Shown here one piece after another: positions 7,123 to 64,000 of a stretch of DNA of 64,000 nucleotides (position 1 is the stretch's first letter; each line of letters begins with the position of its first letter). The notes below the pieces were generated by a model. It searched no databases. It saw only the letters and a program-made list of their open reading frames with translations, and had not been told where the DNA came from. The DNA is from Verrucomicrobiota bacterium (GTDB lineage: Bacteria; Verrucomicrobiota; Verrucomicrobiia; Limisphaerales; AAA164-E04): positions 640,001-704,000 of the forward strand of contig CP170459.1 in NCBI GenBank assembly GCA_047947115.1. Direction: 5' to 3'. The translations under genes were made by a program, and so were the position numbers.

Positions 7123-9249
7123 ATGAACTCAAAAATACTCATCTATTTTGATGCAATCAAAAGGCTGTTTCCATTTTTTTTCACAGCTGATTCGCAGTCG
7201 AATATAGTCGAGTTTGGTCCTTCCTTGGCCAAGATTGTTCCCAGGATCAAGCCAGGCATGGCCCTGCGGGATGTTTTTCGGCCTCTGAGCTCCCATGACC
7301 TGGAACTCCTTGAGAGTAACGAAGGACCGACAGGCACACTATGTCTATTCAGTCCACTGGGTTCTGATTTGATTCTTCGAGGTGAGTTTACCCCATTGGA
7401 TGCAGGCACTCGTTTTTTTGCCGGATCCCCCTGGATTCAGGATTCAGCAGATTTAAATCGCCTCAAACTGGAGATCGATGATTTCGCTGTACACGATCCC
7501 GTTCTTGATTTACTGAATGTCATTCAGTCAGAACGCATGGCCAAGTCGGAAATCCACGACCTGGTCCGCCGATTAAAGACCCAGCAAGCTACACTCCAAA
7601 AGGCCAATGAAACGCTGGAAGAGCAAAACCGCACTATTCTTGCGGCACAGGGGGAAATTCTGGTTACACAAGCAGAATTAAAGCTCAAAGAAGCAGAAGC
7701 ACGCAAGCTGGCCCTTGTGGCCAGTCGCACCACTAACGCCGTGATCATCACCGATCCCAAGGGACATATTGAATGGGCCAATGCGGGATTTGAACGCATG
7801 ACGCAGTTCTCCTTGGAAGAAGTTGTCGGAACGAAACCCGGGGAATTGCTCCAGGGCTCGGATAGCCAGGCGAAAGAGATCGCCTTCATGAGGAAAAAGA
7901 TCGCCAAAGCTGAAGGATTTAAAACAGAACTCATCAACTACACCAAATCCGGACAGGCGTATTGGGTTGCGATCGAAGTCCAACCGGTATTTAACAAGGA
8001 GCGTCAACTAACAAATTTCATAGGCATAAGTACAGACATAACCAAAGATCGGAAATCCAAGGAGCGACTGAGACTGGCAAAGCAAAAAGCCGAAGAAGCA
8101 AATCTTTCCAAGAGCGAATTTTTATCTCGCATGAGCCATGAGTTACGCACTCCCTTGAATGGGATTCTCGGTTTCGGAGAATTGCTGAAAATGAGTCCTC
8201 TTACGACAAGGCAGTTCCAAAACGTGGAACACATCATCAAAGCAGGTGATCACCTGCTGGACTTGATCAACGAAGTGTTGGACTTGTCATCAATAGAGGC
8301 CGGTGCTTTAAACCTTAAAATGGAGTCCGTTCAAATATATCATATCATTGATGAGGCAATCCACTTGACTCAAGTTCTGGCAAAAGAAAGGGAAGTAGTT
8401 GTCACACTGGAGACTTCAATTCCCCGCGATTTACATATTAAGGCAGACACCCAACGCATCAAACAGGTTTTACTTAACCTTATTTCCAACGCCATCAAAT
8501 ACAATGTCCAAGGAGGAGTGGTTCAGGTCGGTGCCCAAAAGAGAACCGACTCGGTTTGGAGATTTCTCGTGAAGGATAGTGGCCACGGCATTCCTCCAGA
8601 TCAGATGCAAAATATATTTAAACCATTCGTTCGGATAGAAAACAATCAATCCGAAGCAGAGGGAACAGGACTGGGGCTGGCTCTTTCTAAAAAACTTGTC
8701 GAAGCTATGAATGGGCAAATCGGCGTTCACTCCAACCAGAACCAAGGATGTGTCTTTTGGCTCGAATGCGAAGCAATCACGCCTCAGGATCAGATCAGTG
8801 GCAGCCACTCGCAGCCACATCCAAATCAACTACTTCTTCCGGATGAGACACATACAGGAAGCGTTCTTTACATTGAAAATAATCTGGAAAACCTACAATT
8901 GGTTGAGCAGGTGATGGAGGCCCGTCCCAATGTGAAACTGTTGTCAACAATGTACGGTATGCATGGTTTGCAAATGGCAAGAGAAAAGCAACCAGATCTG
9001 GTCATCCTGGATCTTCATCTCCCCGACTGTCACGGGCGGGAGGTTTTACGGCAAATAAAACAATCAGAAAAGTCCAAAAACATTCACGTGATCATTCTGA
9101 GCGCAGACGCCATGAATGCCACAATCGACGAGATGCGAGAGCTTGGAGCAGACCAATATCTCAGCAAACCATTGAAAGTTTTAAACTTTCTGAAAACTTT
9201 GGACAAATTTCTCCCGCAAACACCTTCCGGGGGAACTGTAAAACCCTGA
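7123..9249 (+). CDS. H-NOX-associated hybrid histidine kinase: HNOBA(H-NOXA), coiled coil, PAS, HisKA, HATPase, REC
   Basis: LFPFFF...GPSLAKIVP and LRGEF...GSPW...DDFAVHDPVLDLL resemble the HNOBA domain of soluble guanylate cyclase; SHELRTPLN; GTGLGL; REC LDLHLPD; 5 bp after hnoX. Confidence 0.9.
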   Translation: MNSKILIYFDAIKRLFPFFFTADSQSNIVEFGPSLAKIVPRIKPGMALRDVFRPLSSHDLELLESNEGPTGTLCLFSPLGSDLILRGEFTPLDAGTRFFAGSPWIQDSADLNRLKLEIDDFAVHDPVLDLLNVIQSERMAKSEIHDLVRRLKTQQATLQKANETLEEQNRTILAAQGEILVTQAELKLKEAEARKLALVASRTTNAVIITDPKGHIEWANAGFERMTQFSLEEVVGTKPGELLQGSDSQAKEIAFMRKKIAKAEGFKTELINYTKSGQAYWVAIEVQPVFNKERQLTNFIGISTDITKDRKSKERLRLAKQKAEEANLSKSEFLSRMSHELRTPLNGILGFGELLKMSPLTTRQFQNVEHIIKAGDHLLDLINEVLDLSSIEAGALNLKMESVQIYHIIDEAIHLTQVLAKEREVVVTLETSIPRDLHIKADTQRIKQVLLNLISNAIKYNVQGGVVQVGAQKRTDSVWRFLVKDSGHGIPPDQMQNIFKPFVRIENNQSEAEGTGLGLALSKKLVEAMNGQIGVHSNQNQGCVFWLECEAITPQDQISGSHSQPHPNQLLLPDETHTGSVLYIENNLENLQLVEQVMEARPNVKLLSTMYGMHGLQMAREKQPDLVILDLHLPDCHGREVLRQIKQSEKSKNIHVIILSADAMNATIDEMRELGADQYLSKPLKVLNFLKTLDKFLPQTPSGGTVKP

Positions 9250-9258
9250 TTCACGCAC

Positions 9259-11583
9259 CTACATTGACGCCTCAACTTCATCCAGAATACGTTGAAAATT
9301 CGGAATATCGATCGGCTTCACCATGTAATCCGCCGCACCGGCGGCTTTGAGGCGTTTGATTTGTGATGTCGTTGCATCCGCACTGAGTATGTAAACAGGG
9401 ATCCTTTTTGTCATCGGGTGGGATTTCAACAAATGTAGCACTTCGTCGCCATTGATATCCGATAAATTGAGATCCAGAAAAACCACATCAGGCACATGTT
9501 GGCGTGCCAAGTCGTACCCCTGACGCCCCTGAATCGCGGTCATCAGTCTGACTCCACCTCGCTGTTCAACGACTTGTTCGATGAGAGCCAGATTATCGGG
9601 GTTGTCTTTCACATACAAAGCCAGCAACCGGTGGTTGCTCTTTTTATCTATCGCACAGGAAGGAGAAGTCATTTCCTGTTGAATCGAGGGATTTTCTTCC
9701 GAGACCAATCTGTCAGGACAACAGAGTTCGACATAGAACCTCGTTTCTTGCCCGATAATGGAGCGAGCCCATATTTTCCCACCCATAGCTTCCACAAGAT
9801 TTTTGGAAAGAGCCAGCCCCAACCCTGTCCCTTCCACCTTATATTGATCACGCTCGGCATCCAGCCGATCAAAGGGTTGAAACAATCGCTTGAGCTTTGA
9901 TTCAGGGATGCCTTCCCCGGTGTTTTCGATGATAATCCTGACCCGGCCCTCTGAGACATGCTCGCAATACATACCAAGTGTTCCGTGATCGCGATTGTAT
10001 TTGATTCCATTGGATGCCAGATTCAGGAAGACCTGACGCAGTCGCTGCTTGTCGGCCAGCACTTCCAGGCCAGGCTGCCTCTTTTCTTGAAATCGAAGAG
10101 TCACATTCAACTCCGTCGCCATGGGACGTACCAAGTCACCCACTTCATAAAGCAAATCCTGCAGATCAATCTGTTCCAGACTGAAGCTGAAATTTCCGGT
10201 TTCAATTCGTGAAATGTCCAATATTTCATTGATCAGGTCGAGCAGATGCAGACCTGCCTGATGAATGCGATGAATATTCGTTTCCGCTTTGCCGGTGAGC
10301 CCGGACATGGACAACAATTTCGAAAACCCGATAATGCTGTTCAGCGGTGTCCTCAACTCATGACTCATTCGTGAAAGAAACTCACTCTTTGCCTTGTTTG
10401 CCTTTTCCGCTTCATCACGCGCGGCGCGCAACGAGGCTTCCTTGGCCAGGGAATCGGTCACATCCACCAGCACCCAGATGAAGTGTGTCAACCGACCGGA
10501 GGCATCCAACACGGGGGCAATGCTGATATCGTTCCATAAAGTCCTTCCATCTTTTCGATAGTGAAGCATGGTCACTTTGCAATCCTGCCCCTTTGATATT
10601 GCACCCGACAATGTTTCCACTGTTTCCGACTTGGTTTCCGCACCCTGTAGAATCCTCATGCTGTGTTGGAGAAGTTCTTCTCTGGACCAAAGACAGGATT
10701 TTACCATGGCCTCGTTGCAATATATGATTTGTCCATCCTTTACCCGGGTGATCACGACACTGTTGAATGCTGAATTCAGAGCGCGATCACTCAAATCCAA
10801 TTCACGCGTTCGTTCCGCGATTTTTTGCTCCAACAATTCCTGAGACTGGTTCAGCTCCAGGTTTTGGGTTTCGATTCGGTCCAGCATGTCATTAAAATGC
10901 CGGATCAGCTGGCCTATCTCGTCATCTCGCATCTGCACCGCCCGCAGTGAATAATTCTTCTGCTTTCCAATCTCCGTCGCCACCGAGATCAGTTGTTCCA
11001 CAGGACGGGCAATTCGCCGCCCCAGAACCAACGCAATCAACATGGACAATCCGGTGGCAAGCAATCCGGCAATCAGCCCACTCTGGAGGAGCCGTTTGAA
11101 ACGGGAGTATATTTCCGCTTTGTCGTGCATTAAATACACCGTGCCCACCGTTTCCCCAGTGGCAAGTGTGACTGAGCGAAAAATTTCAATGGACATATCG
11201 GATTCGAGGATTTGCTCATTTTGAACAATTGGAGGTTTGAATGAAATAAATGTCTTGCGAGAGCGATATGCAAAAACCCTGCCCTCCTTGTCGTAAATCA
11301 CCATGGCCATGATGGCGGGGTCATTCAGCATGGAGTCAAATCCGGCATCCACTTCACCCGTTCCGGCAAGATCCCCCAAATCCAACACCACCTCGCTGAA
11401 GTGAATCATCATAGCGGCATTGACTTTAACTTTCTCCAAGAGTTGCTGCTTTTGAGAACGAAAATTCAGGAACGATGCTATTGCGATCGTGGCCACCACC
11501 GACGACAAGGTCACCATACCCAGCAGCACAAATATTTTGCCCCTGAGTGTTCGGAGAATGGATGGTCGGTATCTAGTCATCAA
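9259..11583 (-). CDS. Membrane hybrid histidine kinase: CHASE8-like periplasmic domain, HAMP, PAS, HisKA, HATPase, REC
   Basis: Two TM helices; DPAIMAMVIYDKEGRVFAY and GETVGTVYL (YfiN/CHASE8-like); HAMP RDDEIGQLIRHFNDML; SHELRTPLN; REC. Confidence 0.9.
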   Translation of the reverse strand: MMTRYRPSILRTLRGKIFVLLGMVTLSSVVATIAIASFLNFRSQKQQLLEKVKVNAAMMIHFSEVVLDLGDLAGTGEVDAGFDSMLNDPAIMAMVIYDKEGRVFAYRSRKTFISFKPPIVQNEQILESDMSIEIFRSVTLATGETVGTVYLMHDKAEIYSRFKRLLQSGLIAGLLATGLSMLIALVLGRRIARPVEQLISVATEIGKQKNYSLRAVQMRDDEIGQLIRHFNDMLDRIETQNLELNQSQELLEQKIAERTRELDLSDRALNSAFNSVVITRVKDGQIIYCNEAMVKSCLWSREELLQHSMRILQGAETKSETVETLSGAISKGQDCKVTMLHYRKDGRTLWNDISIAPVLDASGRLTHFIWVLVDVTDSLAKEASLRAARDEAEKANKAKSEFLSRMSHELRTPLNSIIGFSKLLSMSGLTGKAETNIHRIHQAGLHLLDLINEILDISRIETGNFSFSLEQIDLQDLLYEVGDLVRPMATELNVTLRFQEKRQPGLEVLADKQRLRQVFLNLASNGIKYNRDHGTLGMYCEHVSEGRVRIIIENTGEGIPESKLKRLFQPFDRLDAERDQYKVEGTGLGLALSKNLVEAMGGKIWARSIIGQETRFYVELCCPDRLVSEENPSIQQEMTSPSCAIDKKSNHRLLALYVKDNPDNLALIEQVVEQRGGVRLMTAIQGRQGYDLARQHVPDVVFLDLNLSDINGDEVLHLLKSHPMTKRIPVYILSADATTSQIKRLKAAGAADYMVKPIDIPNFQRILDEVEASM

Positions 11584-11628
11584 TATCGGGCTCTCTAGAC
11601 CTCAGCATAACACCATGTATCACCTGAT

Positions 11629-13643
11629 TTAAAAATTCCACGCCAGTGTTCCATAAACTGACCGCTGGATTTCCGTACTTTGTATGGCAACATAAGGCTC
11701 GCTGAACTCGGAATGGCAAGGCGTTAACAGATTTTTGCCCATAATAGCCAACTCCAGGTTGGGTCTTGGCTGCCAAGCCAGCCTGACATCCAGAGCCCAG
11801 TACGATGGAATCACAATAGGCCCCAAACGAGAGGACTCAATGGCGCGCTCATCCACAAACCGACCAATCACATCCCATTTAACCGAATCCGATACATCCA
11901 GTCTCGATTGAAGATTCAGGATATGTCGAGGCGCTTCCGGAGGCTCGGTTGCCAAATAACCAGCCGGAGTTTCAAAGTCACTGAACTGAAGCGTATAGGC
12001 AGCCATCAGGCGCCACCAATCTGTCAGTTGCAATTGTGGAGCCAATTCAATTCCATAGGTTTCACCTTCCATACCATTCACGAATCCCGCCGACACACCG
12101 GTTGGAGACATCATCGAAAAACCTGTTGTAATCAGGCGATCATAGTCATTGAAAAAAAACGCGACATCCATGGAGAGACATGATCTCAAATTACCCCGGT
12201 ATCCCAGTTCATACGCAAACATGGTTTCCGTCTCAAGATCCCTGTTGCCGTGAAACAACAGAGGAACGCCCCCCCCGGATCGACCGTGACATCAAGATCC
12301 GTGCGGGAAGGAGTACGAATGGCCCGAGTCACAGCCCCCCACATCATGTGGTCGGCACTGGCATTGAACTGCAGCCGAGCACCCGGTTGAAATTCAAAAT
12401 GCGTGTATGAGTTGTGCTCGAACTTGGATCCGACCGTGAGTTCCCATTTATCGGGAATCAATGCCACGGTATCCTGAATAAAAGCGCTGAATAACCGGGT
12501 GGTTCGATGCGGGAGTGCATAATTTAAGGTCGTGGCATGAGGTGAAGCAACACTGTCATAAATTTGACGGTAACCCAAACCCCCGATCCATTGATGGGAG
12601 AGTTCATCTGGACCGGATAAGGTAAAATCAAAGTCGGTGACATTCTGGAGATCATGAACCATGACCGTATCGCGGTCGGATCGGTCGTGATATCCCTGTA
12701 AAGAAAGTCGGGCCCCGGATTCCAATTCATGCGTCACTCTACCCAGGAGATTTCCCCCTTGGATCAACATCAAATCCTTAACCGGAACCACTCCGGTGGC
12801 ACCGACCGGTTTGACATAAAATTCGTTGCGTTCGCGCAAACCATACATATCGCCCTGCAGCGTGACCTGAGTAAGCTCTGTGGGTTCCCAATCGAAACGA
12901 AACCCGCCTTTGCCTGATTCCGAATCATCATGGGCGGGTTGACCGTTTGGGAGGATCGATTCGTCGCCATTGAGATACTTGCCGTAAACGCGCAGATAAG
13001 CCTGTTCGGCTACCTGGACGCCATGGCGCAAGGCCAACATCCCTTGCAACTCGGAACCGTAACCTGCTTTGACGAGTGTGCCTTGTGTATCCCTTGCAGT
13101 CTTTGTGATGATATTGACCACCCCATTCATGGTGTTCGCACCCCATACTGCGGCACCTGGACCGCGGATGATTTCAATGTGTTCCACATCATCCAACACC
13201 ATGTCCACAGAGTCCCAATAGGTGCCGGCAAACAAGGGTGCATAGGCGCTCCTGCCATCCACCATGACAAGGGACTTATTGGCCAAATAACTGTTGAAGC
13301 CACGGATTCCAACGGCCCACGAGTTATTGCTGATCTGGGCGGCATCCACACCGGGCGCCATTCGCAGCGCCTCAGCAATAGAGGTAGCCCCACTTCGCTG
13401 AATGTCCGCCTGGGTAATCACGCTGACAGCTGCAGGAATGTCTCCCACTTTTTGGGGCGTGCGGGAAGCTATTTCAACGTGTACATCCAACAAGTCCTCA
13501 AGTGATAAAGACATCAGATGCTCGGTGAAATCATCATCAGCAAGTCTTTCCTGCTCCGATGCTCCCAGCGGATAAGCACAGAGCAACGTTATGGCCACCT
13601 GGGCGATACGCCTCCATCTGGAATGATTGTTTACATCTCTCAT
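11629..13643 (-). CDS. TonB-dependent outer-membrane receptor, frameshifted at a G8 tract (12269-12276)
   Basis: Signal peptide; LSLEDLLDV; plug PAAVSVIT...IRGF...LVMVDGR...IEIIRGPGAAVWGAN...GVVNIITK; barrel continues in ORF 11629..12258 ending YGTLAWNF (terminal Phe). G9 or G6 gives an uninterrupted DPGG(G)VPLLFHGNRDLE. Confidence 0.88.
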
Positions 13644-13743
13644 AACATAGGTTGGTTTAGTTGACAGATTGGTTGAAACGGGCATGCCTTCAGCCATTTG
13701 TTCAGTGACAAACAGCAATTGACAGAAACCGGGTAGGTGTTCC

Positions 13744-14421
13744 TCATGGATTTGTCCCCTTTTTGAGTTGGCGCGCCAGTTTGATCATCCGCGAATCAAA
13801 CCCCATCCCAGCGCTCTTTGCCGCATTCAAATCCAGGTCAAACCGCACCTGGCCATTCAACAGTAAAAAATTAAACATGCAGTTGGCATTTTCGCCTTCC
13901 CCAAAAGTAAGAATTCCTCGGTCATGGAATCTGGCGTGCCATTCCTGCCCCCCTGTTTTGTGATGATCATCCACAAAGAGAATGGAATACCCTTCTGCTT
14001 CGCTCAATGAAGTCACCTGCTTGACCTTCCAGATGACCTTCCCCACCTTCCTGTTGTGGATGGAACGCAGAAAGACGTTCAGGATTTGCTTATCTTCTGA
14101 CAAAACGGCCAGTGTGATTTCATGATCCTTTGCCGGATCCCGCCCCTTAGGCCAGGAAGTGTAGTCGGCTTTTTTGATGATCATGGCGGCCACTACCTCG
14201 TGAAATCCGCCCGAAATTGTATCAGCTGACACTGTCATGGGATAAATGCACCCGGACGACAACATCATCACCAAACAAAAAGTTACAATAGAAAACCCTG
14301 CTGCAACTCCGTTTCGGAACTTGCAACCGTCCAAAAACTTACCCGGGTTAACTGAATGCCCACACCTTGGCATGTTATAAGAATATGTCAGCCACAGAGC
14401 TGAGTGATAACACTCGACCAC
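13744..14421 (-). CDS. YfiR/HmsC family (DUF4154) periplasmic protein
   Basis: AAMII...YTSWP, SILFV, ILTFGE, FNFLLLNGQVRFDLDLNAAKSAGMGFDSRMIKLAR C-terminal signature; start uncertain (14421 or 14373). Confidence 0.85.
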   Translation of the reverse strand: MVECYHSALWLTYSYNMPRCGHSVNPGKFLDGCKFRNGVAAGFSIVTFCLVMMLSSGCIYPMTVSADTISGGFHEVVAAMIIKKADYTSWPKGRDPAKDHEITLAVLSEDKQILNVFLRSIHNRKVGKVIWKVKQVTSLSEAEGYSILFVDDHHKTGGQEWHARFHDRGILTFGEGENANCMFNFLLLNGQVRFDLDLNAAKSAGMGFDSRMIKLARQLKKGTNP

Positions 14422-16135: not shown

Positions 16136-17261
16136 TTAAACCACGGAAGAATGTATCTCACGGATTACTCTGCTTTTCACTTCTGAACTGCTCCCGTACA
16201 GGGGAATGGTCAGATAGCACTCCCGCTGACTGCCCGCAACAACCCGGATGCCCATCCCCCCCCCCATGAGCTTTGGCGACTGTTTCCCAAAATGCGTCAT
16301 CGCCGTCGTGGGAACCGGCCCCCTTCAGCTCCGCATGGGCCATCATCGATTCATTGATGGCGGAAGCCGTATCCGCGACAACACTCTGACTGCTCGAACT
16401 CCTCACGGACACTTCAATGCCCGGCCCCTGCACTCGCTTCATACGAATCCCAATCCTGGCTTTCCTGGAACTTTGCTTAATCACAGTTGTCATCATTTTT
16501 GTGAGCGCTCCCGTCAGAAGTTTCTTATCACCCACCATCCACGCCAGTGTGGAGTCCAATGTGCAATCCAATGTCAAATGTTTGTCGGCAAGCTCGCTGC
16601 CAAGCGACCGACAACATGTCTCCATCAACGAATCGGGTGAAAAGGTGGACAACTTCAATTCCAATGGAGGCGAAGCGATGGAGGAATGCGAATGGTCAAT
16701 GTCCCGACATATCTTTTCCAGTGTGGCGGTTGCAACATGAATGGCTTTCTTCATATCCACATCGACCGAGGAATCATTTTCTGTGACATCCCTACCCAAC
16801 ACCCGCATGGACGCATCCGGATCGTTCTGAGAAGCATAGTCGATCCTGGAATCCTCGCCTTCCCCACAATGACAGAGAGCCTCCAAATGACGCATGCGCA
16901 ACATATTCCGCACACGCTGCCGAATTAAAACCGAACCGGCAGGTTTCTCCAAAAAATCGTCAACACCCGCATCAAAGGCCCTGCCAAGCACTTCATTGTC
17001 AAGAAAAGCCGACGATAGAATGATTGGAACATGTATATTTTGGAAGCGTCTGCGGAATTGCTTCACAAATTCAATCCCGTCCATTTCAGGCATCATTAGA
17101 TCCACCACGACACAATCCGGCCCCAACAGCTCAAGCTCCTCCAAAACTTCGATTGGGGATGTGAAACAAACGACGGAACAGCCCATGGATTTCAGGACCG
17201 CTTTCAGACCGATTTGAACCAACGGTTGGTCATCAATGATGGCTACGATGTCTTGACTCAT
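16136..17261 (-). CDS. Response regulator with degenerate HATPase-like domain; C-terminus frameshifted at G10 (16256-16265)
   Basis: REC IIDDQ...VDLMMPEMDG...EKP; no H-box; GDKKLLTGAL resembles a degenerate N-box. G9 gives AHGGGMGIRV...YLTIPL with stop at 16136. Confidence 0.7.
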
Positions 17262-22041: not shown

Positions 22042-23573
22042 GGGTCTTCTCAAAAAAGAGTGGGTAAATTGAGCACGTCGGGATGCCCTATCGCTCTGTT
22101 CCAGTCCAGTAAAACATCAGCATAACTCCCCCGCTGACGCGGAGTCGGCCTTCGGCACTTATATGATGTTTTCCTGGACTTCCACGACGCGAGAGGGCCT
22201 ACGGGTGGTGTGGTTTTTCTCCAAGAAAAACCCAGAGGATTTTTATTCGAAAAGCATCGGCAATCTCCTCAACATGGCGTCGCCAAAACAAACCTCGTCA
22301 AAGAGTGCCGATGCTGTTGAAAACCTTGCTCAATCGTTGCCATAAATTCAAATCCTTTGTCTATCGCCAAGCATGCTTCCAGGAAGTTGAAGGAGTCGAA
22401 GCTATTGTCGTAAGCGTTGAACCACGGCAAAACAGCCGCCCAGTATGTTCAAAGTGCAATCGTAGTGCTTCCACCTATGACCATCGTCCTGGAAAACGAA
22501 AGTTTCGATTCATCCCCTTATGGGGGTGGCCGGTGTTTCTTGAATACCGGATGCGAAGAGTTAACTGCCCCAATGACGGTGTTGTCATCGAATCGGTTCC
22601 TTGGGCCAAAGGAAAAAGCCGGATAACCTGTGTCATGGAACACTTCCTTGCACAGTGGGCTCGGAAACTTTCATGGAAAGAAGTTGCCCAGACCTTTGAA
22701 GTCAGTTGGCAATCGGTGTATCGGTCCGTTGCTTCCATTGTTGAATACGGCTTGAAGCACAGGAGTTTGGACGATATTAATGCCATCGGAGTTGATGAGG
22801 TGCATTTTGGAAAGGGGCAAAAGTATCTGACGGTGGTTTACCAGATAGATCAAGGCACGCGCCGATTGTTAAGCGTCACCAAGGAGAGAACCGAGCAATC
22901 CCTTCGGGATTTTTTTAAGATCCTCACTCAAAAGCAACTTGAGTCCATTCAATTTGTTTGTTCGGACATGTGGAAACCTTATCTCAATGTGATTAAGGAA
23001 AAACTCGAACACGCCCTCCACGTGTTGGATCGCTTCCATATCGTAGCCAATCTGAACAAAGCAATCAATGAAGTCAGGGCGGTCGAAGCGCGTAAGATGC
23101 GTCAGGACGGATACCAGGAAGTGCTTAAACACACCAAATACTGCTTTCTCAAACGTCGTGAGAACCTCACGCCCAATCAAAAGATTAAGCTGGAGGAAGT
23201 CCTCCAGTATGATCTGAAAAGTGTTCGGGCATTTTTGCTCAAAGAAGCATTTGAGTTCTTTTGGAATTACACTAGCCCATATTGGGCTGAGTGGTATTTG
23301 AACAAGTGGTGCACCAGAGCTATGCGCTCACGTCTGGAACCCATCAAGAAATTTGCCAGCAGCCTACGAAAACATCAGCCGCTGATCCTGAATTGGTTCA
23401 GGGCCAAAAAGACTATTTCGTCGGGAGTTGTTGAGGGTTTGAACCGCAAAATAAATCTGACTACCAGAAAAGCCTACGGCTATCGTAGCTTTGAAGTGCT
23501 TAAAATAGCCCTTTTTCACACAATGGGTGAACTACCCGAACCTAAATTTACCCACAGATTCTGAAGAAGAGGC
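22042..23573 (+). mobile_element. ISL3-family insertion sequence with 8-bp target duplication GAAATTTC
   Basis: Imperfect terminal IRs GGGTCTTCTCAAAAAAGAGTGGGTAAATT / GCCTCTTCTTCAGAATCTGTGGGTAAATT; GAAATTTC at 22034-22041 and 23574-23581. Confidence 0.92.
22305..23564 (+). CDS. ISL3 family transposase
   Basis: Zinc finger CSKC...CPND; IGVDE; SDMWKPY; DRFH; EGLNRKI...RKAYGYR. Confidence 0.95.
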   Translation: MPMLLKTLLNRCHKFKSFVYRQACFQEVEGVEAIVVSVEPRQNSRPVCSKCNRSASTYDHRPGKRKFRFIPLWGWPVFLEYRMRRVNCPNDGVVIESVPWAKGKSRITCVMEHFLAQWARKLSWKEVAQTFEVSWQSVYRSVASIVEYGLKHRSLDDINAIGVDEVHFGKGQKYLTVVYQIDQGTRRLLSVTKERTEQSLRDFFKILTQKQLESIQFVCSDMWKPYLNVIKEKLEHALHVLDRFHIVANLNKAINEVRAVEARKMRQDGYQEVLKHTKYCFLKRRENLTPNQKIKLEEVLQYDLKSVRAFLLKEAFEFFWNYTSPYWAEWYLNKWCTRAMRSRLEPIKKFASSLRKHQPLILNWFRAKKTISSGVVEGLNRKINLTTRKAYGYRSFEVLKIALFHTMGELPEPKFTHRF

Positions 23574-24556: not shown

Positions 24557-25903
24557 GGTTTTCGACAATTCCAGTGGAATTAAATTAAGCCGGGATTCTG
24601 AGTTTGCCGGCTACAAAGTAAAGCATAGTGATCATGTATACGGATGAGCGAAAACCTCTGGCCTTCCGCTTGACCGCGCTGAAAACGCTATTCAATCCTT
24701 CCATGAACGCTGTGGTCAGTTTCTTTTTCCAATGAGCAAGTATACCTTCCAAGTGACGTTCAATACTGTTTGCCACCTTGATCATTGGTTCCAACAAGTC
24801 CCCTGAATTTTTCGCCCTTCGTTTTACCCATCCTATCCATTTGACCATGTTTTTTCGCGCTGTAACCTCATTGCGACTGCGATAGACTTGTTGGAAATTT
24901 AATCGCATCTGGTAGGCGATTCCGGTTACTAAATTCTTCAAATCCAATTCCTCTAGCTGCTGGGTTTGACTCTTGGTTAGATTGGAGGGATTTTTACGAA
25001 ATATCCAACGACTTGCTTTGAGCTCCTTTTTGGAATCCTTGTCTCCTTGATTTGCTTCGGCTTTGCGCACTTTATCGACTGCGTCATTGACCATGGCCAC
25101 AGCATGATACTTGTCGAATACAATCTCTGCGTTGCCTAGATTCTCCCTTACTCCCTTTTGATAGGCCGGACTCATATCGATGGCAACTTGAGTGATCGCT
25201 TTTGGATGTCCGTTGTGCGCATATAACGCATCTGCAAAGCGTTGGAATGTTTCAGCGTCTTTGCCCTCGGTGGCAAAAATGACTCTCTTCTCCATCAAAT
25301 CAGCAAACACCGTCAGGTAATCATGCCCTTTGCGTGCAGACAATTCGTCCGCACCGATCCAAACCACTTCACTCATATCCAACTTTGAATAAGCTTCGTC
25401 GACATGGGCAAAAAGAATGCGCCACATGCGTTGATCACACTCTCCAATCAGTCCTGATGCTTTACTAACCGGCATCTCCCTCATCAATGCCAACGCAAAC
25501 CTCTCAAACGCCTGAGTAAAATGTTTTCCTTTACCCTCCCAGGGAACTTTAACCCGATAGGTTCGGTGACAAGATGGGCATTTGCCGCGAGGCACATTGC
25601 AGAGAATTTCAGATCGTTTTCCAAATACATCCATATGTCGCCAAGACCTTGTTTCGGTGTGATCGTAACAGGTAATCCCAGACGATTTGCAGGTCTGATG
25701 GGGACAAACTTCTTTCTCCCAGAGTTTGTCAGTTTCAGTAATAACCATGAAAAACTTTTCCGTCTCAGAATCGTAGTCAACGCCTCGAACTTCCCAACAC
25801 TCATCTAGTCCCAGCAATCCATGTATGGTCTTCTCAATATTCATGGAGCCATCATCTCACGATAGTTCCAAATGCTCAATTCCACTGTTTTTGTCGAAGA
25901 ACC
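24557..25903 (-). mobile_element. ISL3-family insertion sequence (second, divergent from the first)
   Basis: Terminal IRs GGTTTTCGACAATTCCAGTGGAATT / GGTTCTTCGACAAAAACAGTGGAATT; no clear target duplication. Confidence 0.85.
24585..25844 (-). CDS. ISL3 family transposase
   Basis: WRHMD, CPSC, IGADE...KGHDY, IDMSPAY, FDKYH, EGLNS...KRKARGFR. Confidence 0.95.
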   Translation of the reverse strand: MNIEKTIHGLLGLDECWEVRGVDYDSETEKFFMVITETDKLWEKEVCPHQTCKSSGITCYDHTETRSWRHMDVFGKRSEILCNVPRGKCPSCHRTYRVKVPWEGKGKHFTQAFERFALALMREMPVSKASGLIGECDQRMWRILFAHVDEAYSKLDMSEVVWIGADELSARKGHDYLTVFADLMEKRVIFATEGKDAETFQRFADALYAHNGHPKAITQVAIDMSPAYQKGVRENLGNAEIVFDKYHAVAMVNDAVDKVRKAEANQGDKDSKKELKASRWIFRKNPSNLTKSQTQQLEELDLKNLVTGIAYQMRLNFQQVYRSRNEVTARKNMVKWIGWVKRRAKNSGDLLEPMIKVANSIERHLEGILAHWKKKLTTAFMEGLNSVFSAVKRKARGFRSSVYMITMLYFVAGKLRIPA

Positions 25904-28815: not shown

Positions 28816-30331
28816 GCATGCGCGTCAGGATAAAGCCAGGAGGTTTTGTTCATAGTTTTGACGAGATCGTTTGTCATATTTGCATTGGTATCTCATTTGT
28901 ATAGGGATAGCATCGCTGACTTGTACATTCCACGCTTCAAAACACAGAGCCAAAAAGTAATCTCCCAGTAGAGCAGCCACTTTCAACATGCTCAAATGCG
29001 CCGCGTTGCAAGTCTGCCCTGGGGCAAGCCAGTCACGCTCTATCAAGTTTGTAAGAACGGTAATAAAAATGAGTCGTGCACAAACCACTATCCGGAGTTG
29101 CTCTGCAGAACCGTCAGGAACCTCGGTGATACGAAAATGGCTTTTCCATGCCTTAAAAATGGTTTCTATCCGCCAGCGCAAACCGTAGATCTTTGCCACT
29201 TCTTTTGCTGTGCATTCGTTCTGGGGAACATTGGTTGTGAATATCGCCCAACCAAGCAACTCCAACCTTTGGGCATTGGGCTTTCGCCTTTTATCACGAT
29301 TGCTCTTGGCTTTGCGTCGCCGTTCTGCCGCGATCTCATCGGGAAGTTTGATGGCCACCAATCGCACGGGTAACTGCTTATCTGAGAGCAAAACATCAAA
29401 GTCCAAATTTCCTAATCGTTTCAGTTTTTTGAGTAAATCGATTTTTTCTCCTGTGGCTGGGTCCCTCACTTCGATATCCAATCGGATTCGACTCAAATAA
29501 TAGGCTCCAGCGTTTGCTATCTGTTGGAATGATTCTATCACGAAATAGACCAAGTCACGCAGTATTAAGTCCCCCTTACGTATGACTTTCAAAATATCAT
29601 AAGTTGCGGTTTGGTCGTTACGTCTAAATCCACTTATCCCGAAGTAGAGGAATTGTTGATTTTGTATATCCTGAATGGCTTGTATTTTCAGCGATGCAAT
29701 TTTGGAACCACTTTGATTAGCCGAACCGGGAAAAGCAGCCGCCAGTTTCGAATTTACTTTGATGGTCGTGCTATCATGAACAAGGATTCGTGGAAATCTA
29801 TTGAACTTGTTTGGGACGTTGCGGCCATTGTCTTTGGATTTGGCGCTTAATACTAGCGCCAGGATGCATTGAATATAATTCACAGCGCCCTGGTTCATTC
29901 GTTCCCACAATGACTGTTTGGCAATAGTATTATTGCTCAAAATTCCCAACAAAGTCGCCCATCGACTCAAACTTGCGGTGCCTTGGCAAACCAATAGAAT
30001 AGTCGCTTGTAGAAAAAATTCGGGCATTATTTTTCGCGGAGTTCGCAGGACAAAGCCGGTGGCGCGAGCAAGTGTCTGGAAATCGAAATCAGCGAACCAA
30101 CCGGTTAATGTTTGGGCACATCGGTGCCATTCATGAGGCAGGGAAACCCCTTGTGAATCTGGGAGTAAAGTCAAACATTTGGGTTGAGGTCTTGTTGTGT
30201 GTTGAAGATCTGAAGATGATATTGTCTGACAAGGATTTGTTGGAGAGTCATTCGGAAAAGCAGAAAGCAAACTGTACATAAAAGTACAGCTTTATCGTTA
30301 AAAATAATCATTTTTATCCTGACGCGCATGC
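28816..30331 (-). mobile_element. IS4-family insertion sequence
   Basis: Perfect IR GCATGCGCGTCAGGATAAA at both ends; GCAGACGC duplicated at 28808-28815 and 30332-30339 (exact ends ambiguous by 1-2 bp). Confidence 0.88.
28825..30279 (-). CDS. IS4 family DDE transposase
   Basis: DSTTI, RDLVYF, YYLSR, YREK signature YGLRWRIETIFKAWKS. Confidence 0.92.
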   Translation of the reverse strand: MYSLLSAFPNDSPTNPCQTISSSDLQHTTRPQPKCLTLLPDSQGVSLPHEWHRCAQTLTGWFADFDFQTLARATGFVLRTPRKIMPEFFLQATILLVCQGTASLSRWATLLGILSNNTIAKQSLWERMNQGAVNYIQCILALVLSAKSKDNGRNVPNKFNRFPRILVHDSTTIKVNSKLAAAFPGSANQSGSKIASLKIQAIQDIQNQQFLYFGISGFRRNDQTATYDILKVIRKGDLILRDLVYFVIESFQQIANAGAYYLSRIRLDIEVRDPATGEKIDLLKKLKRLGNLDFDVLLSDKQLPVRLVAIKLPDEIAAERRRKAKSNRDKRRKPNAQRLELLGWAIFTTNVPQNECTAKEVAKIYGLRWRIETIFKAWKSHFRITEVPDGSAEQLRIVVCARLIFITVLTNLIERDWLAPGQTCNAAHLSMLKVAALLGDYFLALCFEAWNVQVSDAIPIQMRYQCKYDKRSRQNYEQNLLALS

Positions 30332-60204: not shown

Positions 60205-60663
60205 ATGGAAGATTGGAAACAATTAGCCGAATACGTAAAGTCCGGATCGGAATCCGCCTTTGAGTCGGTGGTCAACGAACACCTGCAGATGGTGTACGCC
60301 ACCGCCTTGCGCAAGACCGGTAACAGGGATGCCGCCGAAGAGGTGACCCAATCCACCTTTATCGTGTTGACGGAGAAGGCGAAAACCCTCACCCCATCGG
60401 GTTCTTTGGGGGCCTGGCTTCATCGGACGGCTTTGCTGAAATCCAAGGAACGCATTAAAAAGGACATCCTCCAAGCGGAACGTCTGCAGAAGCTGAAAGA
60501 ACACGGAATGCCTCGACCCAAAATCCAGAAGAATCCCAATCCCTGCGCGACCAATTCCAGGCGTTGCTCACAGCTGAAGAAACGGCAAGATTTGCGGACG
60601 ATCCTGCGGAAACTTTTCTACAAGGTATACCGGTCGCACAGAGAGGGCAATTCTGGGAAATGA
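60205..60663 (+). pseudogene. ECF sigma factor N-terminal fragment (region 2 only)
   Basis: SESAFESVV...MVYATALR...AEEVTQSTFIVL..KA...LGAWLHRTA; no region 4; C-terminal ~50 aa look out of frame. Confidence 0.7.
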
Positions 60664-61826
60664 TGATGGAGGCATTGAATGATCCTGAGTTGCACGTCAG
60701 GATTCGGGCCATGGGTTTGTTGCCCTTAATGTGGCCGCAACATAAGGAAGCATTGCCCTGGATCGAAGAGAAGTTGCGAGACGGTACCATTCAACCGGGT
60801 AAATGGATGGATAAAACCTTTTACGCCCTCAGCCAAATTTTGACCGAGCCTCAGGAGTACGCCAGCATCGTAGGTGCTCTGATGGAGACTTCGGAAGAAA
60901 TAAAACATAACGCCGGTTTTCAAGCTCCGATCATGATGGCAAAATTTAAAGATAGACCCGATGAAATTCGATCATTGCTGAATCCGTATTTAAAGGATGA
61001 AAATCCATCCAACCGTATGTTGGCAGCCCAGATCCTGGCACAGACGGAAGGTTCCGCGCCAACGGAAGCCATTGAAATTCTCGCTGGCTCCCTACAACCA
61101 GACCGGGATATTGAGGATGAAAATCAACGACTCACCTTAATGATTCTCTGGAAACTGGGCGCCAAGGCAGACACAGCCGTCCCTGCTTTGATGCAACTCG
61201 CGGACGCCAATCCGGATTGGGGCGAAATGGTGGATGTCCTGCTCAAAGCCATCAAACCCGAAGAACTGCAAGGCCACGCCATGCGCACGCCTTTGCCATC
61301 GATGACACCCGAAGCGCAGGCACTGATTGCTGAACTTGAATCCAATCCAAACACCCTCCAGACCATCATCCAGCGCATCGAATCCAATCAATTCACCCAA
61401 TCCGATGTCCTCGCGCTCGCTTCGTTGGAAACCGAAGCCAAAGCAGCCGTACCATCCCTGACATCGAGATTGAATGCTTTAATTGAATCGAATCCCCAAC
61501 AAGCCATGGAAGTCGGCGCGGCACTCGAAAGAATGCAACCGAACCTTCCAAAACCATTGCTCACCGCCTTGGATTTGGTGCCAGTCATACGAGAAATCAA
61601 CACGCAAACCGTTAACAACCCAAACAATCCTGAGGTAATGGACGCATTTCGTGAATGGTCACGTAACTTGATACAGTCCTCCCAGGGATTGATCCGACGC
61701 GAGGACATGGCAGCACAGGCATCACAATTGAAAGACATCCACCCCGACCTCTACCAACAATGGATCAAAGGCCTGATCAAACAGGATACCAACTGGAACG
61801 AATACCTCGAAAAACAATCCCGGTAG
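60564..61826 (+). CDS. HEAT-repeat-like protein, possibly the detached C-terminal extension of the ECF sigma
   Basis: EALNDPELHVRIRA, LKDENPSNRMLAAQIL, LGAKADTAVPAL, AKAAVPSL. Confidence 0.65.
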   Translation: MLTAEETARFADDPAETFLQGIPVAQRGQFWEMMMEALNDPELHVRIRAMGLLPLMWPQHKEALPWIEEKLRDGTIQPGKWMDKTFYALSQILTEPQEYASIVGALMETSEEIKHNAGFQAPIMMAKFKDRPDEIRSLLNPYLKDENPSNRMLAAQILAQTEGSAPTEAIEILAGSLQPDRDIEDENQRLTLMILWKLGAKADTAVPALMQLADANPDWGEMVDVLLKAIKPEELQGHAMRTPLPSMTPEAQALIAELESNPNTLQTIIQRIESNQFTQSDVLALASLETEAKAAVPSLTSRLNALIESNPQQAMEVGAALERMQPNLPKPLLTALDLVPVIREINTQTVNNPNNPEVMDAFREWSRNLIQSSQGLIRREDMAAQASQLKDIHPDLYQQWIKGLIKQDTNWNEYLEKQSR

Positions 61827-61946: not shown

Positions 61947-62960
61947 TCACGCCTCCACCAACATCGTACCATCCCCCAACTCAACCATCGTGATTTGATT
62001 TGGAAGGAATGTGTCGATCACGGACAGATTGGTCCATGCATGGGAACTGCCTTTGGCCATGCGGTAGCGTCCTTTTCGGCTGAGCGCCAGGGGTAGCATC
62101 AGTTGATCGGACAAATACTCTCCCACCGGCGCATCGCAGGTCATGTATTCGCGAATTTCATGGATCATTTGTTGGATCATTTTCCCCGAAGACATATTCC
62201 GCTGTCCAAACCCGGTGAACACTTCCACATGTTCTCCGCGTTGAATGTCCACCACCACCGCGTTGCCGGGTCCGTGTGCAGGTTTCACGTGCTTGAGTTC
62301 AAAACAATCAACCGGCCAGTTCAGTTTATTTTTCAACATACGGATCTGACGTTGACCGATGTCGTCCGGTAAATGACTCAACAGAATCTTGCCTTTGCGG
62401 GATTGAATCTCTCCCGCTTCGGTCAAGTCCAGTTCCTTCCATTCTTTGACAGGCTGAATCTCAGCCTCCATCCTTCCGCCCCCGGCGAGGAAGAATCCGT
62501 GCGCGATCAATCGCAAGGAAACCTCCCCGCCCATCCCGGCCAAAGCAGGCCGAAAACACCGATCGAGAAAATCAAACGAAGGCGCCATCGGATGATGAGT
62601 CCCACCTTCCAGCACCAGACTAGAAGGCACATCCGCCAACATCAAAGCGGGCAGAACGGTTTGGAAAACCAGGGTGACACTCCCTGCGGAGCCGACTGAA
62701 AAGGTATAATCCCCTCCCTTGATCTCCCCAGGCGCAAAGGTTAAATCCGTGGAACCCAATTCGGCGCCACTCATTCTGGCACCGGATACTTCGGCCGCCG
62801 CTCGCACACAGGTCAGGTGCTGCCGCATCAGACCCGGTTTCCGGCGGCCGGCACGTATCCCTTTGATACGAAAAGGCAATCCAGTGATCATGGACAAACT
62901 CAACGAAGTCCTCAGCACCTGTCCCCCGCCTTCGCCCAATGAACCATCTATTTCAATCAT
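61947..62960 (-). CDS. rtcA: RNA 3'-terminal phosphate cyclase
   Basis: MIEIDGSLGEGGGQVLRTSLSLS; KPGLMRQH; GGTH; GPGN; YLSDQLMLP; starts 1 bp after the rtcB stop. Confidence 0.95.
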   Translation of the reverse strand: MIEIDGSLGEGGGQVLRTSLSLSMITGLPFRIKGIRAGRRKPGLMRQHLTCVRAAAEVSGARMSGAELGSTDLTFAPGEIKGGDYTFSVGSAGSVTLVFQTVLPALMLADVPSSLVLEGGTHHPMAPSFDFLDRCFRPALAGMGGEVSLRLIAHGFFLAGGGRMEAEIQPVKEWKELDLTEAGEIQSRKGKILLSHLPDDIGQRQIRMLKNKLNWPVDCFELKHVKPAHGPGNAVVVDIQRGEHVEVFTGFGQRNMSSGKMIQQMIHEIREYMTCDAPVGEYLSDQLMLPLALSRKGRYRMAKGSSHAWTNLSVIDTFLPNQITMVELGDGTMLVEA

Positions 62961-62961
62961 A

Positions 62962-64000
62962 TTAATCTTCCGGCCTTTCTCCATGAGGTGCCATTTTGAC
63001 AATGCGCGGATCAAACTGACCGAGGATTTCGACCAAATCGGACTGGGCACCCATCACCTGATGGATGTCTTTGTAAACCATCGGCACTTCGTCCAGACCA
63101 GCTGACATCAAAGTAACCTGTTTCTCCTTCAAAAATTTTTTAACCGGCGCCCATTCGAAGGACCGCATCGCCTTGGTGCGGCTCATGACGCGACCGGCGC
63201 CATGAGATGCCGAGTTCAAGGATTCAGCGCTTCCTTTCCCCCGCACAAGGAATCCCGGTGAAGCCATCGATCCCGGAATGAAACCCAGGACACCTTTACC
63301 GGCGGGGGTTGCTCCTTTACGATGCACAATCAATTCGCGCGCCTGCCCGTCGATCTCATGCGTCTCTTTCCAGGCAAAGTTGTGGTGGTTTTCAATATCC
63401 AGAAGGCATTCCACCCCGAGGTATTCCAAGACATGACGATGAATGCAGGCATGATTGGCGGCGGCATACTGCCCCATCAATTCCATCGCATTCCAATACT
63501 CGACGCCTTCTTCGGAATCCAGATCCAACCAGGCCAAATGTTTCAATTCACGTGGTAGTTCGGGGTGTGCCTTCATGGCCAGTTTACTATACGTATCGCA
63601 AACCTGCGCCCCCGTTCCACGGCTTCCGCTATGGCTCAACAAGGCCATATAAGTTCCGGGTGCGAGCCCTTTCACTTTTTCTTTCAGCTCGAAGGTTCCG
63701 AATTCCACAAAGTGGTTCCCGCTTCCGCTCGTTCCGAGTTGGCTCCACGCCTTGTCTTTCAAACGATGGGTCACCGGGCTCACATCCCAATCCGCATCCA
63801 TTACGTCGTGCGCCCGCTTTTGTTTGAAGGATGCGCCGATACCGAAACGGGTCTCGGCATTGATGGCCCCTGCAAGGCGATCCTTCTTACGATCCAAATC
63901 CTTCACCGGCAAATCCACCACCGACAATTTCATCCGGCAGGCAATATCAACCCCCACCGCATACGGAATCACCGCGCCTTCCGTCCCCAACACCCCTCCG
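62962..64000 (-). CDS. rtcB: RNA-splicing/repair ligase RtcB, partial (5' end outside window)
   Basis: VGVDIAC, GSGNHF, HSGSRG, HHNFA, HRKGATPA, PGSM, SASHGAGR. Confidence 0.95.
   Translation of the reverse strand, partial: GGVLGTEGAVIPYAVGVDIACRMKLSVVDLPVKDLDRKKDRLAGAINAETRFGIGASFKQKRAHDVMDADWDVSPVTHRLKDKAWSQLGTSGSGNHFVEFGTFELKEKVKGLAPGTYMALLSHSGSRGTGAQVCDTYSKLAMKAHPELPRELKHLAWLDLDSEEGVEYWNAMELMGQYAAANHACIHRHVLEYLGVECLLDIENHHNFAWKETHEIDGQARELIVHRKGATPAGKGVLGFIPGSMASPGFLVRGKGSAESLNSASHGAGRVMSRTKAMRSFEWAPVKKFLKEKQVTLMSAGLDEVPMVYKDIHQVMGAQSDLVEILGQFDPRIVKMAPHGERPED

Follow-up and report, generated by a model that had tools for sequence, protein, structure and literature searches.

A divergent YfiR, TonB-dependent receptor and hybrid kinase locus of a Verrucomicrobiota bacterium, with a predicted YfiR-docking peptide in a frameshifted receptor gene

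The window analysed here is a stretch of 64,000 nucleotides (positions 640,001–704,000 of a single 6.08-Mb contig) from a Verrucomicrobiota bacterium, and our subject is a minus-strand locus within it that runs from a gene for a YfiR-like periplasmic protein through one for a TonB-dependent receptor (TBDR) to one for a 774-aa hybrid histidine kinase (Table 1). An earlier interpretation made from the letters alone (the sequence-only reading) had proposed three co-oriented genes, which is borne out. Its call of a TBDR gene is supported by Plug and barrel matches in Pfam, but the gene is broken into two open reading frames (ORFs) in different frames, of 510 and 209 aa, with the break at a run of eight G, a feature that had gone unnoticed; the kinase frame is unbroken. 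We consider the locus to represent, in divergent form, a three-gene type of envelope sensor that is widespread: the receptor would capture YfiR by a short N-terminal helix and thereby release the kinase, the receptor gene being frameshifted in this genome, and we assign this interpretation a probability of roughly 55%.

Table 1. Features of the locus, in coordinates of the window
Feature	Position	Strand	Basis
YfiR-like periplasmic protein (DUF4154)	13744..14421	-	PF13689, NF053591, family-profile match to solved YfiR
TBDR 5' piece: signal peptide, N-terminal motif, plug, most of the barrel, out-of-frame tail	12186..13718	-	Pfam Plug and barrel, NF053590
N-terminal motif, predicted YfiR-docking element	13470..13520	-	Conservation, model, family specificity, second barrel, co-variation
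G8 run at the frameshift	12269..12276	-	Comparison with in-frame alleles
TBDR 3' piece: remaining barrel with C-terminal Phe	11629..12258	-	PF00593, NF053590
Hybrid histidine kinase: transmembrane segment (TM), periplasmic PAS-like domain (CHASE8-type), TM, HAMP, PAS, HisKA, HATPase, REC	9259..11583	-	Pfam, homology, model

Three NCBIfam 20.0 models are the best families for the three genes, namely NF053590 (TOL_0244-family TBDR), NF053591 (TOL_0243-family YfiR-like) and NF053592 (YfiR-associated sensor kinase); all three gene products score below the curated cut-offs, as do many linked relatives with regard to the TBDR cut-off. For the YfiR-like protein, the claimed family membership is confirmed by PF13689 (E 1.4e-21; 77.5 bits versus a cut-off of 24.9), and the family profile matches solved YfiR with an E value of 3.5e-15. 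The protein is divergent, with about 20% identity to family members, and scores 71.1 bits with NF053591 (cut-off 125) and 18.9 bits with NF053586, sequest_YfiR (cut-off 85); a search of the ESM Atlas returned DUF4154 clusters only. Translation likely starts at the ATG at 14373, giving a protein with a cleavable signal peptide. The usual pair of cysteines is indeed missing, as had been proposed: none of the four cysteines of Pseudomonas aeruginosa YfiR has an equivalent, and the sole Cys of the mature domain stands at another position. With these cysteines gone, control of the locus YfiR by redox state is unlikely, and we rejected it. Among 99 rows of the family alignment, the C71 column holds Cys in 22 and the C110 column in 75, and the C145–C152 pair is absent. 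A conserved E-Y-x-V-K stretch was also rejected as a marker of TBDR-linked YfiRs, since it is found in 100 of 116 YfiRs with a TBDR but also in 14 of 20 that lack one. Architectural variants of YfiR elsewhere include a fusion to a kinase-receiver (909 aa; L437, 3520–6246) and a tandem double YfiR (L167, 2414–3775).

For the receptor, the ATG at 13643 is the likely start. NF053590 matches the 5' piece over model positions 2–396 (432 bits) and the 3' piece over positions 406–604 (138 bits), and an intact allele, P0003, reaches 577.5 bits against a cut-off of 645. At 96% identity, the 5' piece corresponds to residues 1–457 and the 3' piece to residues 460–671 of P0003. This allele has the plug, the whole barrel and an aromatic C-terminal residue in one chain, as the split gene of this assembly does not. 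The previously stated lack of a long N-terminal signalling extension stands as far as such a domain is concerned, but a very short dedicated extension is present: about 15 residues behind the signal peptide lies the motif treated below. A Pfam scan of 12 proteins encoded between 1828 and 22027 gave no match to an N-terminal signalling domain, an anti-sigma factor or an extracytoplasmic function (ECF) sigma factor. The TonB-box-like I-x-V-T-S strand that follows the motif is conserved in the family and divergent in the locus TBDR. It was also correct that no tonB lies nearby, both TonB-domain genes of the genome, like an ExbD gene, being situated away from the locus, and that yfiB is absent, the two OmpA-domain genes of the genome (at 913,772 and 4,975,869) being remote from any yfiR.

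The kinase was rightly described as a histidine kinase devoid of GGDEF: Pfam assigns HAMP, PAS, HisKA, HATPase and REC, and the one GGDEF match of the genome lies elsewhere. Its proposed CHASE8-HAMP sensor is confirmed for HAMP, but CHASE8 itself (PF17152) gave no match at E<=0.01 (13.7 bits; cut-off 27), and the locus kinase is not among the 96 of 105 aligned sensors that match this domain. In an AlphaFold model (pLDDT 90.7), the N-terminal part folds as TM, PAS-like domain, TM and HAMP, with WalK-type sensors as nearest folds; judged from aligned homologues and this model, the locus sensor is CHASE8-like by transitivity. NF053592 scores 116.1 bits on the sensor region (cut-off 194).

In many phyla, genes for the receptor, YfiR and a CHASE8-type sensor are found together. 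In a survey of TBDR homologues, 79 loci were fetched with a TBDR alignment from the best 80 of at least 616, covering about 14 phylum-level groups; 63 carry yfiR plus a sensor and 6 carry yfiR without one; 4 have neither, and the other 6 are cut off by a contig edge. The co-occurrence predicted from the single locus thus holds for 69 of 79, with 6 of the 10 misses at a contig edge. Within 61 related genomes, 37 have yfiR and 27 an NF053590 match at E<=1e-40, all 27 belonging to the 37; no such match occurs in the 24 genomes without yfiR. Being kin, the genomes of this set are not independent of one another. Counted by eye, the 70 yfiR loci in relatives comprise 47 with a TBDR, 12 with a small barrel, 3 that are truncated upstream and 8 with neither partner. 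A kinase forms the end of 119 of 127 sensor ORFs. A second survey addressed the class of a Methylococcaceae genome (40 loci out of 51 matches), which lies outside the training set of the motif matrix described below: here, 28 loci contain a TBDR or a fragment of one, and 4 combine TBDR and YfiR with a GGDEF sensor. Input and output are thus swapped independently, since TBDR and YfiR also feed GGDEF sensors. The usual gene order is TBDR-YfiR-sensor; the YfiR-TBDR-kinase order of the window was not seen in the other loci tabulated.

What sets the yfiR-linked TBDRs apart is a short helix, DLxxLSLEELM, inserted before the I-x-V-T-S strand; in ordinary TBDRs of the same genomes, the signal peptide is followed by a plain TonB-box-like strand. 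The motif comprises residues 42–58 of the intact allele and is modelled as a short helix pair plus this strand (helices 39–44 and 48–52, strand 55–57, pLDDT 60–70). A strict regular expression was replaced by a position-specific scoring matrix (PSSM) built from family members, with which the median score of 150 family TBDR entries is 29 versus a maximum of -0.5 for 56 other TBDR entries, some of the loci overlapping. Out of sample, in the second class, 25 of 1375 ORFs score at least 12, all of them TBDRs or a TBDR 5' fragment with the motif right behind the signal peptide. A second subfamily of yfiR-linked TBDRs, about 20% identical to the first, bears the motif as well (L052, L065, L066, L086, L101 and others). 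L-S-x-E is a common helix cap. Partly for this reason we dropped a supposed likeness of the motif to YfiB helix 35–44, which moreover is mostly invisible in the YfiB-YfiR complex (PMC4887326).

The motif is not confined to TBDRs. Upstream of the second yfiR locus of the genome (yfiR and sensor kinase; G000:C1:4475126-4479056, L041 5627-9556) lies a motif-bearing barrel of about 350 aa that is unrelated to the TBDR, matches PF13557 weakly and has no NCBIfam model; it is a pseudogene here, with an internal deletion and two stops, and intact in congeners. Where this small barrel stands directly upstream of yfiR, the motif replaces its usual N-terminus. We surveyed 79 further small-barrel loci, leaving out 7 that lie at the end of a contig and others in which the N-terminus could not be seen: all 15 assessable barrels before yfiR carry the motif, and none of the 46 with the usual HAPIGVMGDH start precedes yfiR. 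When 10 intact copies known from before this survey are included, clustering at 70% identity sorts 24 intact motif barrels into 9 groups; they therefore represent fewer independent cases than their number would imply.

A further line of evidence came from co-variation, computed over 99 paired rows for all TBDR and YfiR columns and compared with ten shuffles. The top pair links motif position 44 to YfiR position 73 (z 10.5 versus shuffled maxima of 6.0–7.1). Among the 86 rows with a motif score of at least 5, Glu or Asp at YfiR 73 accompanies Lys at motif 44 in 25 of 25 cases and other residues in 2 of 61; out of sample, the figures are 2 of 2 with Lys 44 versus 1 of 18 without. None of 19 small-barrel pairs has Lys 44 or an acidic residue 73. 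YfiR position 73 aligns one residue before Q88-A89-N90 of P. aeruginosa YfiR, which together with S57 forms the pocket for F48 in the N-terminal region of YfiB (PMC4887326), and YfiB and YfiN have been reported to bind a common face of YfiR (PMC4655355). As a sign of docking, we regard this co-variation as suggestive, not as proof.

On this basis, the following sequence of events can be envisaged. By analogy with YfiBNR, YfiR would sit on the periplasmic PAS-like domain of the sensor and hold the kinase off. Binding of an extracellular ligand to the TBDR would undock its N-terminal box region into the periplasm, as in BtuB, FecA and FoxA, and the exposed helix is predicted, from the portability of the motif and its co-variation with YfiR, to bind YfiR at the surface used by the N-terminal loop of YfiB. 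With YfiR captured at the outer membrane, the sensor would be freed, HAMP would switch, and the kinase would phosphorylate its own or neighbouring receivers. That the TBDR stands in for YfiB, as the sequence-only reading had it, is thus favoured indirectly, by a portable N-terminal motif and its co-variation with YfiR. More tentatively, and at slightly worse than even odds in our estimation, a portable N-terminal peptide of about 15 residues may enable barrels from two or more unrelated families to act as receptors that capture YfiR, and so define a separate trans-envelope route from ligand via a soluble adaptor to histidine kinases and cyclic di-GMP (c-di-GMP) enzymes in more than a dozen phyla, with specificity set in part by the Lys/Glu pair; the alkane-sensing OmpS may belong to it.

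Several observations weigh against capture of YfiR by the receptor. For four of the 79 family TBDRs, all motif-bearing, the roughly 6 kb downstream contain no yfiR, and in the second class the motif score stays below 12 in five TBDRs linked to yfiR. An outer-membrane partner is not obligatory, as none is found at 8 of 70 yfiR loci in relatives and at 12 of 40 in the second class. The YfiR of this lineage has lost the conserved E-Y-x-V-K stretch, and in the small barrel gating by a ligand is less obvious because it has no plug domain. The co-variation itself is also less compelling once phylogeny is considered: on the TBDR tree there are only 4 changes, and though all 4 independent pairs agree, the sign test gives p=0.125; on the YfiR tree, only 2 pairs are supported, of which one agrees and the other carries no information. 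Since an acidic residue 73 goes along with sensor positions 60 and 108 as well, it is in part a clade marker, and co-variation between YfiR and sensor did not rise above the shuffles.

Two other explanations deserve consideration. The TBDR could simply import a ligand that YfiR or the PAS-like domain then binds in the periplasm, with no contact between receptor and YfiR and with the motif serving gating or TonB coupling. Such a division of labour would agree with the structure model of P0003, in which the barrel is plugged in the ordinary way and comes close to those of Cir and BtuB, with the retention of a TonB-box-like strand, and with the weak binding of vitamin B6 and Trp by P. aeruginosa YfiR (PMC4887326); TOL_0244, moreover, is induced sevenfold on the n-C28 alkane and was interpreted as a transporter (PMC6304351). 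We nevertheless hold it to be unlikely, as it accounts neither for the motif on a plug-less, unrelated barrel solely beside yfiR nor for the co-variation of motif and YfiR. The other explanation retains binding of YfiR by the helix but takes folding or localisation of the barrel as the input, so that unassembled barrels titrate YfiR and the kinase reports stress in outer-membrane biogenesis. One and the same tag on two unrelated barrels would be in line with this, as would the response of YfiBNR to envelope stress (PMC3375315, PMC4887326). Conservation of plug and barrel (53 invariant columns among 25 sequences across phyla) goes beyond what a passive reporter would need, though, and tandem paralogous TBDRs with one common YfiR, seen at L130, L138 and L173, suggest several ligand inputs instead; reporting of barrel assembly thus appears to us more doubtful still.

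Returning to the receptor gene of this genome, the break can be judged from the 12-member cluster of P0003. Seven alleles have the G run, 5 in frame and 2 (this genome and the independent JGI contig P0126) with the same shifted tail; in 4 further alleles, the run is interrupted. As the in-frame alleles read Gly-Gly-Gly-Val at this site, intact genes should have nine G. These figures, and the fact that near-identical alleles are mostly intact, are compatible with a reversible G8/G9 ON-OFF switch or a slip of the assembly, the whole receptor still being made, and we lean slightly towards this over decay. Frameshifts are not a general feature of the genome: of 173 orthologues checked, only 1 has a frame change, likewise at a homopolymer. 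Decay is nonetheless a possible alternative, being common in the lineage. The TBDR orthologue of a congener (L253 8430-10439, G001:C111; 60% identity over the 5' piece) is an orphan with an in-frame TAG, the second partner barrel of the genome has the deletion and stops mentioned above, and breaks at other sites affect P0128 and P0150/P0151. Metagenome contigs scanned for the G-run site with an exact 22-base query gave 0 matches. Split TBDRs of the family were also noted at L053 3720-5922, L058 12158-14213 (again broken at a G run), L407 2250-4312 and L403 5214-7324. Given the frameshift, it is probable that the relay does not operate in this strain or that the locus is mis-assembled and, both outer-membrane partners of the genome being broken, the signal input is probably cut. 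Since the locus copy is both divergent and broken, it makes a poor model, and intact relatives are better suited.

The locus is part of a dense two-component island (window 1828–24446) with at least 6 kinases or hybrids, stand-alone receivers and an OmpR-like regulator, which is mostly absent from 7 congeners (short matches only). Three of the island kinases share a paralogous PAS-HisKA-HATPase-REC core (37–47% identity) and differ in their sensors; as the cytoplasmic part of the locus kinase is 47% identical to a propeller-sensor kinase (6003–1828) and 37% to the adjoining H-NOX-associated kinase, several inputs probably feed one phosphorelay. Histidine phosphotransfer (HPt) domains had no match in the window and two elsewhere in the genome. 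The adjoining genes, on the plus strand, encode an H-NOX protein (PF07700; 6560–7117) and an HNOBA-PAS hybrid kinase (7123–9249), likely a nitric oxide-sensing pair; the latter converges with the locus kinase, 10 bases separating their stops. At 16158–17261 (minus strand), a receiver precedes a degenerate kinase-like region, which seems to run out of frame at its end; REC is the sole Pfam match. Transposase-like ORFs lie beside the island at 22305–23564, 24585–25844 and 28825–30279 (by eye, two ISL3-like and one IS4-like). Farther away, there are an ECF sigma-like ORF seemingly split over two overlapping frames (60205–61826, plus strand) and, judged by eye, adjacent RtcB-like and RtcA-like genes (61947–63993, minus strand).

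TBDRs are known to signal via ECF sigma factors. If an outer-membrane receptor were linked directly to two-component and c-di-GMP networks, this would account for a cassette of many environmental bacteria and would provide the missing input for YfiR-sensor pairs without YfiB. The motif and its charge pair reduce the question to peptide binding and two point swaps.

How does the locus compare with known systems? AwsXRO and HmsCDE are synonyms of YfiBNR. The locus resembles YfiBNR (TpbB/DgcN; P. aeruginosa, E. coli) in its periplasmic YfiR-fold protein, its inner-membrane sensor of the TM-PAS-TM-HAMP type, its proposed action by sequestration at the outer membrane and a predicted docking surface beside the region-I pocket for YfiB. 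It differs in having no OmpA-type lipoprotein, no GGDEF and none of the four cysteines, its partner being an integral barrel that faces the outside. Lacking GGDEF, YfiB and the cysteines, it is not a member of YfiBNR, although by analogy it likely works in a similar manner. The YfiR-YfiN[PAS/HAMP] core of Malone 2012 likewise pairs YfiR with a kinase-output sensor in the absence of yfiB, a Verrucomicrobium included; Table S4 of that work lists such pairs for Opitutus, Acidobacteria, Rhodothermus and Dechloromonas (PMC3375315). Replacement of the cyclase by a histidine kinase, which the sequence-only reading had proposed, is thus seen at the locus but was already in print. Receptor and motif are not described there as far as that source was available, and 'TonB' is not mentioned in its main text or 8 supplementary files.

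In FecA, FpvA and FoxA, signalling involves an element just before the TonB box that is exposed upon ligand binding (PMC11658791), and the motif helix occupies the place of the FecA signalling domain. The locus element has about 12 residues versus the ~79-residue domain of FecA/FecR/FecI-type signalling, and a soluble YfiR and a phosphorelay take the place of a membrane anti-sigma factor and an ECF sigma factor. Alcanivorax dieselolei has a TBDR, OmpS (B5T_01485), that has been reported to initiate the sensing of alkanes and is 40.3% similar to TOL_0244 (PMC6304351, PMC5174103); it is a lead only, as a possible member of the family. The NCBIfam trio captures the same association of genes, from which the locus deviates by its YfiR-TBDR-kinase order, split TBDR and sub-cut-off scores. 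That no mechanistic description of the trio is available, as had been surmised, agrees with the literature searched, in which subscription journals are largely missing. The trio families in NCBIfam and a kinase output without YfiB are thus already known; what is added here is evidence for a docking element.

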